Shown here: one piece after another, positions 49,745-57,554 of the stretch
Layout of the letters: the number at the start of each line of letters is the position of its first letter
Numbering within the stretch: position 1 is the first letter of the stretch
Virus record (IMG/VR): IMGVR_UViG_3300005563_000033
Span: 1-64,000 of that record
Length of the DNA stretch: 64,000 nucleotides
Origin: a virus
Direction: 5' to 3' (one strand)
The notes under the pieces: model-generated
Told to the model about the DNA's origin: nothing
What the model saw: only the letters and a program-made list of their open reading frames with translations
Databases searched by the model: none
Position numbers and translations under genes: made by a program

Positions 49745-51147
49745 TGGCCAAACGTTTTCATATACCTACTGTTGGTAATGTGGCTGCCGGAGCCGTGGTG
49801 TTTAATCCGCACTATGACAACATGGCCCGTCAAATGCAGATGCACCAACTGGCCAAAGATCAGGCATTGGGTCAATACTACAGCAAGCTGGAAAATAGCA
49901 TCAATCCGGCAGGCGTTAGGCAACAGGATATGGACGGATGGCAGAAAAAACTACAGGATTGGCAAGCGTTTGCTATCGAAAATAGACAAGCTCTTATTAA
50001 TCCCAACCTAGACAGAGGGCAGGCCATGCGTAGGTTCGGAGCCATGCACCAAGACCTTTTGGGAGATATTCAAAAATCAAAGGCGGCCGCTGCTACAGAA
50101 AGGGCCGTTCAGCCGCTTTTTCTTGACCCGAAAAGAAGGGCTTTAACTACCAATAAAGACCTAGAATACGGACACCGGCTAAGTGCTTCTATTTATGATC
50201 CACAGCATTACAAAGACGATGGAGTCACACCCATAGCACCGGAAGATTTTTCTTTTAACGCGGCCCCTTATGATGTAAACAAACAGAGAACTACCAATAT
50301 TGAATTAACGAGGGGATTGAAGCAAGAAAAAACATATGGTAAGGGGAAGGTAAATGAAGCAGAACTAAAAGATTATGTGCCTTTTACGTTAAAGCATTCG
50401 CCCCAAAACCTACGGGTTATTGGTGATCGGATGGCATCTTTGTATGGGAGTGGGGATCATGGAGACAAGTCCATCCAACAGTATTATGACAACTTCCCTG
50501 TAGACGCCGCCGCTCATGAGCAATTGGATAAAGCCTATCGTTCGGTCTATCCAGAAGATAAAGACGGCATTGGAACGGACCCCAAAAAATTGGCTATGGC
50601 CCATGCTATCCAATTAAACTCCCAAGAAACACAAGGGACAGAGATAAAAGGCTGGTCTCGACCACCACAAGGCCGTCAATTGAGTCAAACCAAGCAAGCA
50701 CAACAGGATATGGCTAACTGGATAAATGGATTCTCAACAGCCATAAAGAACGGGGATGAGGGAGAAATGAACCGGTACGGGGACCTTTTATATGGCGGGA
50801 AAGGGCAGAGCAAGTATCAAGGATTAGAGAAAGGGCCGGTTGAAACTGGTAATCCACCCGGGCTACACCTAATAGAAAATATTAAGCCAGGGGTTAGTAT
50901 TATCCATCAGGATCAGGTTTTCAACCCCACTAAGGGTATTTATGAACCGCAGACCTTACGAGAACAATTAGACCCGAACGACCCGGCACTGGCAGATAAA
51001 CTAGGGAGAATTTATCAAATGCATATGGGAAGTTCTTCCCCGATGAAGAATGTTCTTTTGAAAAGCGCCGTCAATCAACCGCCGCCCCCTAGCACGAAAC
51101 CCGCTCCCGTAACACCCGAAAAAGACCCATTAGGACTATTTAAATAA
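49744..51147 (+). CDS. Ejection (internal virion) protein, middle
   Basis: 467 aa between the small and giant ejection genes. Confidence 0.6.
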   Translation: MAKRFHIPTVGNVAAGAVVFNPHYDNMARQMQMHQLAKDQALGQYYSKLENSINPAGVRQQDMDGWQKKLQDWQAFAIENRQALINPNLDRGQAMRRFGAMHQDLLGDIQKSKAAAATERAVQPLFLDPKRRALTTNKDLEYGHRLSASIYDPQHYKDDGVTPIAPEDFSFNAAPYDVNKQRTTNIELTRGLKQEKTYGKGKVNEAELKDYVPFTLKHSPQNLRVIGDRMASLYGSGDHGDKSIQQYYDNFPVDAAAHEQLDKAYRSVYPEDKDGIGTDPKKLAMAHAIQLNSQETQGTEIKGWSRPPQGRQLSQTKQAQQDMANWINGFSTAIKNGDEGEMNRYGDLLYGGKGQSKYQGLEKGPVETGNPPGLHLIENIKPGVSIIHQDQVFNPTKGIYEPQTLREQLDPNDPALADKLGRIYQMHMGSSSPMKNVLLKSAVNQPPPPSTKPAPVTPEKDPLGLFK

Positions 51148-54100
51148 TGCCTGTAAATAAATACGATATACCAACCTTTGCTTCTCGAATAAAAGAGAAA
51201 TACCCCCAATATAAGGATGTTAATGATACAACGTTAACTAAGGCTATCGTAGACAAGCATCCAGAATATAGAGAGGCGGTTGACTTGTCTGGACTCGACA
51301 AACAGACTTCGCCCGTCGATCAAGGTATTGACAAAACCACGAACAAGGTTAACCAATCTATCCAATTCAATGGGACTTTCCAGCCGGATTTAGAGGGTGA
51401 AAAGAACGGCGTTTATACCAATGACCCCGATTACCAGAAGCAAAAGGCCGACTTCGTAAGCAAGATCATGACGGATCAACAAGGGCGACTACTTTATCCC
51501 GAACAGGATACCAAGGGGAACTGGGTAAACTATTATACCAAAGAGCCTATTGTAAACTTTGATCCACACGAAATGAGGGGGAAAATACTGCAAGTTCCCC
51601 ATGAATATCTCCCGGCAACAGGTGGTAAAAAGTTCATCACCCCCGTTTATAATCAAAAGACAGGAAGTTACGACTTCCCGGATGTGCAAACACCAGATGT
51701 GCCGCATCAAGAAACGCTACCAGAAGCAACCGTTTATGGAGGTAAAAAAGGAAATGGAGAATCTCCTGAATTACAAGGGCTCTCACCTGAAGTAAATTCT
51801 ATACTTGATGAATCCGGCAAACAGGGGGGGCAATTTTCGCAGATTCTAAAAAAGAACCCATCATTAGCGCAAGATATAGACAAAACGCTGAAAAAATACG
51901 GCGAACCTTATGTCCAATCCCTTAAAACAGGTAGTGAAGCGATGAGCAATGTCCTTCAAAAAACTGTAGAGGATAAGTTTGATCTGAATAAACCATTGCC
52001 ACAAGACGTTGACCCGGCTATCTTAAATGGGCATTTGAATGTCTTAAATAACTTTGAGAAAAACAGGAAACAATTTGAGGATACGCAGAAAGAACTACAA
52101 AGACAGGCAGATTTAATAGCCGACAAAGCAAAAAGGACCGGGCAGCCGATTGCTCAACAGGATGTAGATATATTGAATCAAAAATCTGCTAAAAATACAG
52201 CCAATTGGAATGAATATACCAAGGCAGTTAAATATGCGCAGAACTTTGTAGAACAACCGGCTGTAAAAAACTATTTGGATGAATTTAAAAAACGGCAATC
52301 CGGCCTTCAATTATTGGATGAAGTTCGGCAAAGAACCTTCCCAAGTGATATAAACAAGGAAATAAAACAAGATGAATACGACCGAAAAGCCATTGAGGGG
52401 AATCTAAATGCCTGGGATTACGCGAAAACATTCATGGGTAAGGCCGGTGCTGGTATTTCTAATATAGGGGAATCTGTTTTAAAAGCCGCTCCTAGCGTAG
52501 TTACAGGCGGCGCACTAAGATGGTCTCCGGAAGGGGAAGCCAAGATAGAAAGTCTTAATAATGGGGCACAACAATTTTTATCAGCCAATCTCCCGTCTAT
52601 TTCCCAAGAAGCATTACAAGAAATGGACAAGCGGGGAATGGGGCATTTGATTGATGATATAAGCTCTACCTTGGGAGGATTTGCGCCTTATATTATTCCG
52701 GGCGCAGCAGGAGAAGGGTTAGGGGCTAAAGCAGCTACGTTTGCGACTGCCTTAGCAGAAAGTGTTCCTACGGTTCGAAAAGAGGCCGAAAAAGCTGGCT
52801 TAACCGGAGCAGCTTACAATACCTTCATTACGGCCAAGCCTTTGATTAATGCGGCCTTTATGACCTTACTGCCCAATGTGAAATTTGCCAAAGGATTCGA
52901 TAATGATCTAGCTAAATCTATTGTAAATGGGGAATTTAATAGCCCGAAACGATTCTTGTTGAATATGGCATCCAAAGCATTGAAAGACCCTAGCGACATT
53001 GCCCACTTGCAGGCTATGTTATCCGGAACCGAAATAGGAAACAATTTGGTCAATCAAATTACCAATGCCATCCAAAAGGGTCAGGATATTGACAGAGGCA
53101 TTAGCAGAAAAGAAGGACTACCCGTTGACTATTCGAATATAATCAATCCCAGACAGACGGCAGTTATGGCATTGGCTGGTAAAGTGCTGGAAACAATCCC
53201 GACCCTTAAAAATGCTATAGGAGATCGGATAGCCGGAAAAGATATTGCCGAAACGTACAACCATATTCAAAGTAATATAGTCGAACTAGCTGCCCATAAC
53301 TTAGATGGCGTAAGCAAGCAAGTGGACGCCTTAGTGAAGAAAGACCCCGGTAATATATATGCGCAACACCTCAAAAATACGTTACAAGATTTTGCTTATG
53401 CCAAAGCGCATATGCCGGAAGGATTAAATGAGGATCAGCAAGCGGCTATCTTTTCACTTCAGCAAGAAACTTCCAAGGCACAACGGCAACTATCAACTGC
53501 TGACCCCATGTATCAACCTCACCTGCAAAAAATGGTAGAGGAATACAATAAACAAATTGGAGATATCATAAAGAATCCTAATAAAGCTATCGACTATTTA
53601 AAAGATTCTCATAAAGATTTGCAGGAACAAATTTTATCACCTCAAACAGAACAAAATGGCAAAGAAACCGAAGCCAATGCCCAAGCCGAAGGGGTATTAA
53701 GCCAACCAGAAGGCGAAGCTAAGGAAGTAGCTGCAAAATCGCCTTCTTATCTTCTTTCCAGACATGCGGATACAAAAAAAGACGAAGAGGGGAAAGTGAG
53801 CGGACCGAACCAGCATCCATTGTCCGAGATGGGTAAAAAAGATGCCGACGACTTGGCGACTGAAGTGCAAATGCAAGCAGATAAAACCGGCATTCCTATT
53901 ACTAAAATCGTTCACTCCGGGTTAGAGAGATCAGCGGAAACAGCCAATAGAGTGGCAAACAGGGTAAAGGCTCGCACTGTGAGTGATCCTGATTTAAACA
54001 CATGGGCTAATGGAGATTTCGACAATATTTCAGACCAAGAGTGGAAGGATGTACAAGCATGGTATGGAGAGCATCCTGACGAAGTAGTTTACGATGGGCC

Positions 54101-57100
54101 TATTGAAAAATTCAAAGGGTGGAAATTGGATGAATCCTTAAATCAATATGCCAACAGAACAATTGGAGCGCATGCTAAATACGAAGGCGAACCGGCCAGT
54201 ACCCTATTAATCGACCATAGCAATAACATGATGGTCATGGATGCTTATCGTAAAAATGGTGGCAAATGGGATAAAAAGGCTATCCAATATTATCTGAATG
54301 CCGAAAAGCCGGAACCGGCATCCTTAGTGAAAGGAGAAAAGCCAAAGATCACCATATCGACACCAAATATTGTTAACGTAAAATTGAAAGAAAATCCAAT
54401 TATTGACTTAAATAATGAAAACCATGTATCTAGTGTTATAAAAACACAATGGGATGCCGTAAATGAAGGTAAGCTATTGGATAATGAGGGAAGTTCTATA
54501 CAAGGGCCAAATAACGGCATCGCATCTAATGGGCTTGAAAATTTGACAGATAAAACATGGGGACACGGATCGGATAGGTTGACTGTAAAAGACAGTCTAA
54601 AAGCATTACAGAGTTTGATGTCAGGTGGTAAATTCACAGGGTGGTTTGGGAAAATAAAAGAACCGGAAGGCGGGATGAATGTTCGTGATTATGGGGCTAA
54701 ATTTGTAGTGGCTACGGATGATGTAGAAGCCATACATGGAGAGAAAGGAACAGGTAAGTTAAATCCTAAAGAAGTTGAGATAATATTGAATGATCAATTA
54801 TCTCCTTTTGGCCAATCGCTAAAAAATGAGTACCCTGAATTTACTATTAAAGATTATAATGGGAAAGAATTTAAACAAATAAAACCAAAAGAAAATGTAT
54901 CAGTCGGACAAACAGCGCCGCTGGGCACACACGAAAACGGGGACGGAGGCACTGGGAGGACCAGCGAAAGTAGCGGAGTGGGACCAAGCCAGCAAGGGGA
55001 AGGACCTGCCGGAAACGGCCCCAAAAAAGAAGAAGATACGGGTCAAAAAGAAAAGCCAGTAAGCGACGAACTGCCTTTCATTGAAGAAGAAGGAGACAAT
55101 GAGTTTACCAGCACCAAAAATGAAGTAACCAAGCAGAAAGTAGAAGACTCTGGACTCAGGCCAGCAATGGAAGAAGCCGCTAGGGATTTTGGTAGTGTGT
55201 GGAAAGATGCCCAAAAGAAACTAAGTAAGGGTTTTGACATTGAAGGACTACTGAAGGGATTAGCCAAAAAGCCAAGGGCTGTGACTGACCTTGAAAACGC
55301 TATGATCCTTTTTCATCAAAACGTAAAAGAGGCGCAATTGGATGCCGCTAATAAGGAATTGGATCAGGCCAGAAAAGATGGCGACCGGGATAAATGGAAT
55401 GAAGCCTATGGAACGAGAGCAAGATTGTTAGACGACTTGCAAGATATTTATGACGTAGATAAGTCTATCGGTCGTGAAACGGCTAGAGGTTTGAATGCGC
55501 GGAAAATGATGGCAGACCGTAGGTTTTCGTTGGTGAATATGCAAATGGAGAAGCGGGCGGCAGGCGGCGGTGAACCATTAACCGAAAAACAAACGGAAGA
55601 GGTTCAAAAACAATATGAGGCTATAAAACAGGCTAAAGAGGCTCTTGATGCAAGAGTATCTGAATTGGAAAAAGAGAATGTCAGATTGAAGGCAGAAAAA
55701 TCCGTTCAGGGCCAACGGGGAACAGGCGGTCGTACGAAGAAAACAAAAGAGCAATACGCTCAGGACAGGAAAGATATTGTCCAAAAAATGAGGGATGATC
55801 TACTTAAAGCGGCCAAAGGCGGAGAAGGTTTAACCTCATCCATTCCCTTGGCGGCCCAATTGAAGGCCATTGCTCCGCACGTAAAAAAATTAGTCGAAAG
55901 TTTCATAGAGCAGGGTATTGATAAACTGGAAGATATTACCAAGGGGATTCATGATCTTTTAAGTCCTTCCATTCCTGAGTTAGAAGAAAGGCATATTCAT
56001 GACCTGATTGCCGGTGAATTCAATGAGCCCAAACCTAAATCCGGCACACCTTCAAAGGCACAACAGATAAAAGAAGAGGCTAAGGTACAAAAGTATAGAG
56101 CAACCGATCCAGTATTAATGAAAGCTCAGGCCGAATATGAAAAAGCAAAAGAAACATTCTTACAAAATATAAAGAAGGATCAACTTAAGGCCAGAACCGG
56201 ACTTCAAAAGATACAGGATGCTTTCCTTAAATATGAACGCTTTGCAAAGCTATCCAACCCTATTACCCTTGGCAAACTGTCAATGGCGGCGCTCACTAGA
56301 CTATCCACCACTCCCCTAGAAGAAGGCGTAGGCGCTGTTTATTCTAAATTGCTGCCAGGATTAGCCGCCAAAGCTCCGGGCGAAGCTGGCGCTAATGTAA
56401 AGGCATTGGCTAAAGGGTATAAAGCAGCTTTCATGAGAGGGTTGGATGATGCGGCAACCGTTGTAAAAGGTGGTAAAACAGATATAGAAGCCGTCTACGG
56501 AAAGAAGGGATATTTACCCCCCGAAGCCATAGATTTCTTCGGACAACTTCACAGTGCTATTAAAGCCCCGGTGAAAAGGTTTGCCTTTGAGCGGTCTTTC
56601 GAAAAGAGAATGGCCAATAATATTAAGAATGGGACGCCTATTGACGGAATGGTCGAGGCGCGTATTGCAGTGGAAGCCTATAAAGACGCCCAACGATCTA
56701 TATTCATGCAAGATAATGCCGTATCTCGCGGGTGGTCGATGTTGATAAATGGGCTGGAAAGAACGGATACGCCGGGCGGCAAAGAATTGGCAACGGCTAT
56801 GCAGTGGCTAATCCCGTTTGTGAAAGTGCCTACCAATATCGTAGGAGAGACGGTATCGCATGTAGCCGGACCTGAAATAGCATTGGCTAAAGTGCTTCAT
56901 GCCGGATTGACGAAAGGGCTTAAAAATTTGTCACAAGATGAAGCAGAAATGATCTTACGTAACCTTAAAAAAGGAACCATAGGACACGGAGCATTGATGT
57001 TGGGTTATTTGAATCCACAAGCATTTGGAGGGTATTACCAAAAGTATGAAAAACGAGACCCGGAAGATGTAAAATTCGGAGCGGCAAAACTTTTTGGAGT

Positions 57101-57554
57101 GAAAATACCTGCTTGGATGCTAGAAGCTCCTATACTCCAGACTATGCAATTGGGGGCAACCGTTAGACGTGTTAAAGACACAATGGTAAAGGGCCAGCCC
57201 AAAGGAATAGGAGAAGGGATGTGGGCTGGTGGGCTTGGGTTATTGGAACATGAACCCTTAATAGATGAGCCAGTAAGATTAGGCGAAATGTTGGGTAAGA
57301 GCAATGAAAGGCAGTACTTCATGGGTGAATTAGCCAAAAGCACGTTGGTTCCCGCTGCGGCTGATTATGCGGCAAAGGTGAGTGATCCGCTGGATACAAG
57401 ACCAGTGGGAGAAAGATTAATGGACCCTGAAAACAAAAGAAAGCCGACTACTATACCAGAACATATTGAAAGTGCCATACCGGGATTGCGTGAAAATGTA
57501 GAAGAAAAAAAACCAGTACCGCACAAACAAAGACAACATAAACCAGCTAGTTGA
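51147..57554 (+). CDS. Giant ejection/polyvalent protein with histidine-phosphatase domain
   Basis: 2135 aa; helical with Gly/Ala hydrophobic patches; RHADT..PLSEMG..HSGLERSAETA..LIDHS; C-terminal IPFVKVPTNI. Confidence 0.8.
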   Translation: MPVNKYDIPTFASRIKEKYPQYKDVNDTTLTKAIVDKHPEYREAVDLSGLDKQTSPVDQGIDKTTNKVNQSIQFNGTFQPDLEGEKNGVYTNDPDYQKQKADFVSKIMTDQQGRLLYPEQDTKGNWVNYYTKEPIVNFDPHEMRGKILQVPHEYLPATGGKKFITPVYNQKTGSYDFPDVQTPDVPHQETLPEATVYGGKKGNGESPELQGLSPEVNSILDESGKQGGQFSQILKKNPSLAQDIDKTLKKYGEPYVQSLKTGSEAMSNVLQKTVEDKFDLNKPLPQDVDPAILNGHLNVLNNFEKNRKQFEDTQKELQRQADLIADKAKRTGQPIAQQDVDILNQKSAKNTANWNEYTKAVKYAQNFVEQPAVKNYLDEFKKRQSGLQLLDEVRQRTFPSDINKEIKQDEYDRKAIEGNLNAWDYAKTFMGKAGAGISNIGESVLKAAPSVVTGGALRWSPEGEAKIESLNNGAQQFLSANLPSISQEALQEMDKRGMGHLIDDISSTLGGFAPYIIPGAAGEGLGAKAATFATALAESVPTVRKEAEKAGLTGAAYNTFITAKPLINAAFMTLLPNVKFAKGFDNDLAKSIVNGEFNSPKRFLLNMASKALKDPSDIAHLQAMLSGTEIGNNLVNQITNAIQKGQDIDRGISRKEGLPVDYSNIINPRQTAVMALAGKVLETIPTLKNAIGDRIAGKDIAETYNHIQSNIVELAAHNLDGVSKQVDALVKKDPGNIYAQHLKNTLQDFAYAKAHMPEGLNEDQQAAIFSLQQETSKAQRQLSTADPMYQPHLQKMVEEYNKQIGDIIKNPNKAIDYLKDSHKDLQEQILSPQTEQNGKETEANAQAEGVLSQPEGEAKEVAAKSPSYLLSRHADTKKDEEGKVSGPNQHPLSEMGKKDADDLATEVQMQADKTGIPITKIVHSGLERSAETANRVANRVKARTVSDPDLNTWANGDFDNISDQEWKDVQAWYGEHPDEVVYDGPIEKFKGWKLDESLNQYANRTIGAHAKYEGEPASTLLIDHSNNMMVMDAYRKNGGKWDKKAIQYYLNAEKPEPASLVKGEKPKITISTPNIVNVKLKENPIIDLNNENHVSSVIKTQWDAVNEGKLLDNEGSSIQGPNNGIASNGLENLTDKTWGHGSDRLTVKDSLKALQSLMSGGKFTGWFGKIKEPEGGMNVRDYGAKFVVATDDVEAIHGEKGTGKLNPKEVEIILNDQLSPFGQSLKNEYPEFTIKDYNGKEFKQIKPKENVSVGQTAPLGTHENGDGGTGRTSESSGVGPSQQGEGPAGNGPKKEEDTGQKEKPVSDELPFIEEEGDNEFTSTKNEVTKQKVEDSGLRPAMEEAARDFGSVWKDAQKKLSKGFDIEGLLKGLAKKPRAVTDLENAMILFHQNVKEAQLDAANKELDQARKDGDRDKWNEAYGTRARLLDDLQDIYDVDKSIGRETARGLNARKMMADRRFSLVNMQMEKRAAGGGEPLTEKQTEEVQKQYEAIKQAKEALDARVSELEKENVRLKAEKSVQGQRGTGGRTKKTKEQYAQDRKDIVQKMRDDLLKAAKGGEGLTSSIPLAAQLKAIAPHVKKLVESFIEQGIDKLEDITKGIHDLLSPSIPELEERHIHDLIAGEFNEPKPKSGTPSKAQQIKEEAKVQKYRATDPVLMKAQAEYEKAKETFLQNIKKDQLKARTGLQKIQDAFLKYERFAKLSNPITLGKLSMAALTRLSTTPLEEGVGAVYSKLLPGLAAKAPGEAGANVKALAKGYKAAFMRGLDDAATVVKGGKTDIEAVYGKKGYLPPEAIDFFGQLHSAIKAPVKRFAFERSFEKRMANNIKNGTPIDGMVEARIAVEAYKDAQRSIFMQDNAVSRGWSMLINGLERTDTPGGKELATAMQWLIPFVKVPTNIVGETVSHVAGPEIALAKVLHAGLTKGLKNLSQDEAEMILRNLKKGTIGHGALMLGYLNPQAFGGYYQKYEKRDPEDVKFGAAKLFGVKIPAWMLEAPILQTMQLGATVRRVKDTMVKGQPKGIGEGMWAGGLGLLEHEPLIDEPVRLGEMLGKSNERQYFMGELAKSTLVPAAADYAAKVSDPLDTRPVGERLMDPENKRKPTTIPEHIESAIPGLRENVEEKKPVPHKQRQHKPAS
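53656..53700 (+). CDS. Nested +1-frame basic peptide MAKKPKPMPKPKGY
   Basis: A-rich start context; inside a low-complexity linker of the giant gene. Confidence 0.4.
   Translation: MAKKPKPMPKPKGY
54895..55062 (+). CDS. Nested +1-frame small basic protein, 55 aa
   Basis: MYQSDKQRRWAHTKTGTEALGGPAKVAEWDQASKGKDLPETAPKKKKIRVKKKSQ; preceded by AAACAAATAAAACCAAAAGAAA. Confidence 0.65.
   Translation: MYQSDKQRRWAHTKTGTEALGGPAKVAEWDQASKGKDLPETAPKKKKIRVKKKSQ

Follow-up and report, generated by a model that had tools for sequence, protein, structure and literature searches.

Evidence for a small gene embedded in the +1 frame of a giant virion-module gene of a phage

We have analysed a stretch of 64,000 nucleotides of viral DNA (in the following the window) and conclude that the positions 54895–55062 are very probably a functional protein-coding gene which is embedded in the +1 frame of a giant virion-module gene; its translation is inferred. 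The original prediction of a real nested gene at this site is supported by a conserved ATG-started open reading frame, by selection acting in the +1 frame and by free-standing homologs. That the nested gene is real we state with high confidence, whereas our confidence in its function is moderate to low.

Results

The nested open reading frame and its giant host gene

The features of the region are as follows:

51147–57554, plus strand: host gene of 2135 codons coding for a giant protein of the virion structural module (open reading frame, ∼100 homologs, neighbouring genes)
53751–54197, plus strand: histidine-phosphatase domain of the giant protein, aa 869–1017 (Pfam PF00300, E = 9.9e-13)
54875–54894, plus strand: putative initiation region without Shine–Dalgarno sequence (15 of 20 bases are A, one is G)
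54894–55070, plus strand: host-frame linker, aa 1250–1308, rich in G, E, S, T, and P (out-of-frame reading of the nested gene)
54895–55062, plus strand: nested gene, 55 codons and TAA, in the +1 frame of the giant open reading frame; belongs to the family matched by phrog_1375
54895–55014, plus strand: conserved domain, residues 1–40, three short helices followed by an invariant Leu-Pro (AlphaFold2, alignment)
55015–55059, plus strand: lysine-rich tail, residues 41–55, predicted to be disordered (AlphaFold2, composition)

The coordinates and the frame that had been given for the 55-aa open reading frame are correct: its ATG is at position 54895, its TAA ends at 55062, and the offset to the giant open reading frame is (54895-51147) mod 3 = 1. 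Taken alone an open +1 frame is weak evidence, since the T content of the nested open reading frame is only 7.1% (21.5% over the whole giant gene) and since the +1 frame was fully open in 13% of the trials when the synonymous codons were resampled with the host protein held fixed. These two values are what an open reading frame arising by chance has in its favor: a T-poor, purine-rich linker would leave its sense frames open, and the conservation of the +1 frame would only be the shadow of selection on a host motif. As detailed below we find this explanation hardly credible. Apart from the nested gene, the giant gene contains only one other ATG-started open reading frame of at least 40 codons in an alternative sense frame, namely 51601–51795 (plus strand, 64 codons, +1 frame) in the N-terminal part. 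This frame contains stops in the related loci L013 and L016 and has no ATG in L012; we take it to be a chance open reading frame and use it as internal negative control for the nested gene.

Upstream of the giant gene the terminase (33018), the portal (35137), and virion structural proteins are encoded. The giant protein has ∼100 homologs in the protein collection, many of which possess the histidine-phosphatase domain, and a few carry PolyVal-type Pfam domains (ART-PolyVal, Kinase-PolyVal, and others). The closest homologs are P0003 and P0004 with 89% and 84% identity, respectively, for which only the C-terminal region (residues 1300–1720) was searched. The host-frame linker ends where the conserved C-terminal module of the giant protein begins.

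As far as can be judged from the sequences, modules are shuffled around the spacer of the giant protein. Between its histidine phosphatase and the nested gene, the window encodes an additional domain of ∼170 aa (∼54400–54890, host aa ∼1085–1250), which is absent from L012 and L011 and is found in a different protein of L004. The homolog P0003 has a different insertion directly after the spacer. In L013, L014, and L016 the spacer is preceded by what appears to be the N-terminal half of a second histidine-phosphatase-like domain with an RHG-type motif, and a segment resembling the C-terminal half of such a domain is located further upstream; both were read by eye from the translations.

Conservation of the nested frame in related loci

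DNA of relatives was taken from IMG/VR by pattern scans. Interruption of the +1 frame by stops in close relatives would have spoken against the nested gene. In fact, an ATG-started open +1 frame is present at the same site in every related locus with this linker (10 of 10 loci, the window counted). Eight of these loci share an obvious protein motif; the frames of L011 and L018 are open but unrecognisable. In these two loci (L011:2460–2600 and L018:10095–10256) an ATG and an open frame are found in the right place and the sequence is no longer family-like. Apparently, the nested gene has decayed there while the spacer persists; thus, a nested gene can decay with its frame still open. An open frame with unrelated sequence would also be compatible with an open reading frame that never had a function.

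A degenerate DNA pattern that represents the best-conserved motif of the +1 frame recovered 15 viral contigs. In six of them the open reading frame is nested, within open frames of 671–2157 codons, and for several of these six further giant open reading frames no homology to the giant protein of the window can be detected. Altogether there are 16 nested copies, all of which have kept the ATG. The residue which supplies the A and T of this ATG in the host frame is Asn, His, or Asp among the protein homologs, all three of which have NAT codons. As had been anticipated, gene callers miss the nested gene: the same layout is unannotated in 16 contigs, which points to a systematic blind spot.

Selection acts on the +1 frame

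The ungapped 111 nt starting with the nested ATG were compared in six loci, yielding 15 pairs. The differences concentrate at codon position 1 of the host frame, which is the wobble position of the +1 frame, and the wobble position of the host frame is the least variable (e.g., 9, 2, and 2 differences at the three host codon positions between L016 and L012). In all 15 pairs the amino-acid identity in the +1 frame exceeds the identity in the host frame. In addition, pN/pS was determined on nucleotide-level alignments for seven disjoint pairs, including the window and L013, with 600 nt as flanks. In the +1 frame the values range from 0.11 to 0.57 (pooled 0.36) and in the host frame across the nested segment from 1.15 to 1.98 (pooled 1.52); for the window and L013 the respective values are 0.42 and 1.64. 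In the flanks the host frame has a pooled pN/pS of 0.44, which is the ordinary pattern. The distribution of the differences over the three phases is 112/81/69 in the nested region versus 361/263/558 in the flanks (chi-square p = 5.5e-9).

This pattern is expected when the protein under constraint is encoded in the +1 frame and nothing but openness is required of the host frame. The substitutions between the loci thus show that purifying selection on the +1 frame keeps the nested gene, and that, along these bases, the host frame changes in the manner of a spacer which is free of constraint except that it must stay open. Two earlier suggestions are borne out by these data: frame-specific conservation is seen in the +1 frame with the opposite pattern in the flanks, and the host linker is constrained by the nested gene, as the host wobble positions are the least variable and the host pN/pS is above 1. 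Many giant homologs have a linker that looks conserved when read in the host frame, which would suit an open reading frame left open by chance. On the contrary, selection on a host motif should not leave a host pN/pS above 1 together with a pooled value of 0.36 in the +1 frame in seven of seven pairs, opposite to the flanks.

It could also be argued that the nested frame is the relic of a formerly free-standing functional gene, which is not expressed in this phage and whose DNA, now a linker, has not yet diverged. The decayed copies in L011 and L018, the lack of expression data and the divergent peptide of the window, which is missed by the phrog_1375 model, would be in line with this proposal. 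Nevertheless, we regard it as improbable: the selection on the +1 frame was measured between copies which are all nested, including the pair of the window and L013, and the window has retained the six invariant residues of the family, the ATG, the A-rich leader, and a confidently predicted fold.

A large family of small basic phage proteins

When 1.84 billion representative proteins were searched with a profile made from eight nested peptides, there were 3224 matches at E ≤ 1e-3 and 86 at E ≤ 1e-10. Most of the matching proteins have 45–110 aa and are matched at their N-terminus, from the first residue on. In addition, in eight of the 15 viral contigs recovered with the DNA pattern the gene stands by itself and the other frames contain stops, as verified from the DNA. 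Stand-alone homologs, which were named as a possible support for the nested gene, hence exist: there are thousands of matches and many of them are free-standing. From the predicted proteins it is evident that the nested gene is a member of a very large and unnamed family of small basic phage proteins.

A family HMM was then built from 125 separately called proteins only. The free-standing status of most of these proteins is not confirmed by their contig context, and there is a mild circularity, as the 125 proteins were chosen by a profile that had included the peptide of the window. In the window the HMM has a single match, 54883–55059, with E = 7e-8 and 28.7 bits; of the 1372 six-frame segments searched, the next best has E = 1.1. 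The nested open reading frames of the relatives are matched with E-values of 1e-16 to 9e-21 among 15,687 segments. With BLASTP, the peptide of the window is 49% identical to the free-standing L049:5575–5745 (pairwise E = 1e-11). Free-standing homologs, a match that is unique in the window, and an ATG kept by all 16 nested copies would not be expected for a chance open reading frame.

The only library family that was matched is phrog_1375, annotated as "unknown function": the nested peptide of L012 matches at 8e-7 and free-standing members match as well. The phrog_1375 HMM did not match the peptide of the window at E ≤ 1, nor was a match obtained in the six-frame search of its genome. As the relatives match and the window's peptide does not, the phrog_1375 model covers only a part of the family. 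The peptide of the window is a divergent member by its predicted sequence, which is missed by phrog_1375 and lacks the usual Pro2. The motif which had been given for small basic phage proteins is essentially the family consensus; the peptide of the window, however, fits this motif only with a gap of one residue after Met1, since it is without Pro2.

Neither Pfam nor NCBIfam has a family for any member. A hint to DUF3008 from a protein atlas (score 0.86, 15% of one cluster) could not be confirmed. Searches against cultured phages with the region (blastn) and with the peptide of the window (tblastn) gave nothing meaningful, and P0103 had no match among cultured phages at E ≤ 1e-3. We found no paper on the phrog_1375 family or on genes nested in polyvalent proteins. 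One free-standing variant of 99 aa (L047:4177–4473, plus strand) has a long extra C-terminal extension and is located near a large glycosyltransferase-like gene.

Some family members are longer proteins in which the motif forms an N-terminal domain ahead of NUDIX or SAM-lyase domains. In P0174 and P0205, for example, the domain of ∼40 aa is the N-terminal module of long proteins with NUDIX or SAM-lyase-like domains. This predicted arrangement suggests a tag-like or adaptor role of the domain.

Predicted structure of the nested peptide

With a family alignment of 64 rows AlphaFold2 predicts the peptide of the window with a mean pLDDT of 82.6, and the blocks of the residues 1–40 reach 85–93. The predicted helices comprise the residues 5–11, 14–20, and 23–33. 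In the same alignment the columns M1, S4, Q7, W29, L38, and P39 are invariant, and all of these residues are present in the window; the nearly invariant Pro2 is missing. The net charge of the peptide is +9, compared with +5 to +13 for the 16 nested copies, and the free-standing members have similar K/R-rich tails. The peptide contains no cysteine and has no hydrophobic N-terminus. A search of the PDB with the family profile gave no match, and Foldseek found nothing significant in the PDB and BFVD, the best hit being an uncharacterised phage protein of 44 aa (E = 0.21).

Initiation of translation

The A-rich initiation region that had been noticed upstream of the ATG is indeed present, with 15 A and one G in the 20 bases before it. 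A TAA stop of the +1 frame is located at 54880–54882, four codons before the nested ATG. Such a leader conforms to the other genes of the window, of which only 2 of 38 have a Shine–Dalgarno core and whose 20-base leaders contain 49% A and 9% G. Leaders which work independently of a Shine–Dalgarno sequence are known from Bacteroidota. The DNA of the window occurs in rhizosphere metagenomes, which are possibly its source. All 16 nested copies have 9–15 A in the 20 bases upstream, an in-frame stop is found 1–6 codons upstream of the ATG in 14 of the 16, and the Met encoded by the nested ATG corresponds to the first residue of the free-standing members.

Instead of a separate protein, the +1 segment could be expressed by programmed frameshifting. 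A −1 slip from the nested into the host frame would yield the small domain joined to the C-terminal module, and a +1 slip from the host frame would yield a truncated giant protein with a basic tail. Such fusions are conceivable, as in many cases the family domain stands at the N-terminus of a long protein (NUDIX, SAM-lyase), and an in-frame A-AAA-AAG heptamer is found in the tail of the window's gene. Canonical −1 slippery heptamers, however, occur in only 5 of the 16 nested copies and at no fixed position, the upstream stop leaves almost no room for a +1 shift, the ATG matches the N-terminal Met of the family, and homology to the giant protein is lacking in all 43 long family members. We therefore consider frameshifting very unlikely. 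Given the A-rich leader, the identity of the ATG with the family Met, the upstream stop, and the scarcity of slippery heptamers, independent initiation is the best reading. That the small protein is translated independently from the ATG at 54895 is inferred and not shown, as there are no ribosome-profiling or peptide data.

Genomic context and possible function

The family genes are located in the head/virion morphogenesis module; this holds for the host gene of the window as well as for the free-standing copies. In viral contigs the free-standing copies lie two to three genes away from the large terminase. The mycobacteriophage members (gp10 of Patience and of cluster D) directly follow the portal gene and precede the protease and MuF genes. 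Patience gp10 matches the family HMM with 30.7 bits, and it is listed as a virion protein identified by HPLC-MS/MS (PMC4324244, Table 1).

Tentatively, and with somewhat less than even confidence, we suggest that the small protein is packaged in the virion, that its helical domain serves the incorporation, and that its basic tail contacts the DNA; both the DNA binding and the presence in the virion are inferred. Docking within the procapsid or close to the portal would be the task of the N-terminal three-helix domain; the packaged DNA would be bound by the lysine-rich tail, and at infection the small protein would leave together with this DNA. The functional assignment rests on composition and on a single proteomics entry for a distant homolog. 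Similarly, the original idea of a DNA-condensing or core peptide remains an inference for which there is no more support than the basic tail, the location within the head module, and the detection of Patience gp10 in virions.

Discussion

The nested gene had been described as overprinted. The direction is probably the reverse: the family is widespread and free-standing, whereas the low-complexity linker is confined to giant proteins. Judged from the comparison of the predicted sequences alone, the giant open reading frame probably reads across a small gene that is older than itself. Three observations lead to this suggestion: the family is vast and its members are mostly free-standing; the host-frame reading, which occurs in giant proteins only, is of low complexity and has a pN/pS above 1; and the nested gene is located at a junction at which the N-terminal modules of the relatives differ. 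The giant open reading frame would have arisen by the fusion of flanking modules across the small gene in another frame, and the linker would be a by-product, namely the out-of-frame reading of the small gene. An intermediate preceding this fusion was not found, and no free-standing copy was seen beside the distant giant homologs without the linker. A fusion ancestor among the long family members was considered as well and was discarded, since none of them (n = 43) is homologous to the giant protein.

A more general proposal can be put forward, which we regard as possible but rather doubtful. The spacers of giant "polyvalent" proteins would often be old small genes in a second frame, and the three-helix domain would be a general adaptor for capsid targeting or portal docking, which is used free-standing, as N-terminal tag of cargo enzymes, and nested, the nesting having occurred several times independently. 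Repeated independent nesting is suggested because the nested subtypes have closer free-standing relatives and because the host open reading frames are unrelated. If this were true, nesting would fix the ratio in which the small protein and the giant ejected protein are produced.

The nested gene is a further well-supported example of dual coding, here in a large dsDNA phage, in which a "disordered linker" is another gene read out of frame. Conservation or dN/dS that is read in the host frame would be misleading across such spacers. Furthermore, a connection with the virion and with giant ejected proteins is made for an orphan family with thousands of clusters and without Pfam entry; this provides a handle on its function.

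Which known systems are comparable? Among the free-standing proteins, phrog_1375 and Patience gp10 share with the nested peptide the start Met-Pro-aromatic-x-Ser...Gln, two conserved aromatic positions, the Leu-Pro-Glu stretch, the K/R-rich tail, the length of 45–70 aa, and the location in the head-morphogenesis module. The gp10 genes of Patience and cluster D are, however, free-standing between the portal and the protease/MuF genes, whereas the copy of the window is embedded out of frame. With regard to the host, polyvalent proteins of phages and conjugative elements have reportedly been described by Iyer et al. in 2017. The host protein of the window resembles them as a giant multi-domain protein of the virion module with homologs that contain PolyVal domains. 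The literature we found on polyvalent proteins describes their domains and not genes nested in their spacers; a single paper in which both terms appear deals with something unrelated.

With regard to the dual coding, the genes B, K, and E of phiX174 are overprinted genes, and in small viruses the novel frame is usually a small accessory gene. As in phiX174, one stretch of DNA has two coding functions, one frame being constrained and the other relaxed or disordered. The evidence from the window points in the opposite direction, that is, to an old and widespread small gene and a new spacer of a giant protein.

The genes Rz and Rz1 of phage lambda are embedded spanin genes, and embedded, overlapped, and separate layouts occur across phages. 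As Rz1, the nested gene is a complete small gene within a larger phage gene, on the same strand and in the +1 frame, with both frames open. For Rz/Rz1 both frames are translated from the same mRNA, whereas this is only inferred for the gene of the window. The product of Rz1, encoded in the lysis cassette, is a lipoprotein of the outer membrane that possesses a signal peptide and a lipobox cysteine; in contrast, the peptide of the window is lysine-rich and belongs to the virion module. An o-spanin like Rz1 can be ruled out on account of the missing cysteine, the missing hydrophobic N-terminus, and the position in the structural module. In addition, the host of the nested gene is a multi-domain virion protein of 2135 aa, and the overlap covers only a spacer between domains. 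Thus the architecture is of a known kind, namely that of embedded out-of-frame phage genes, and the product and the host differ from those of Rz1/Rz.
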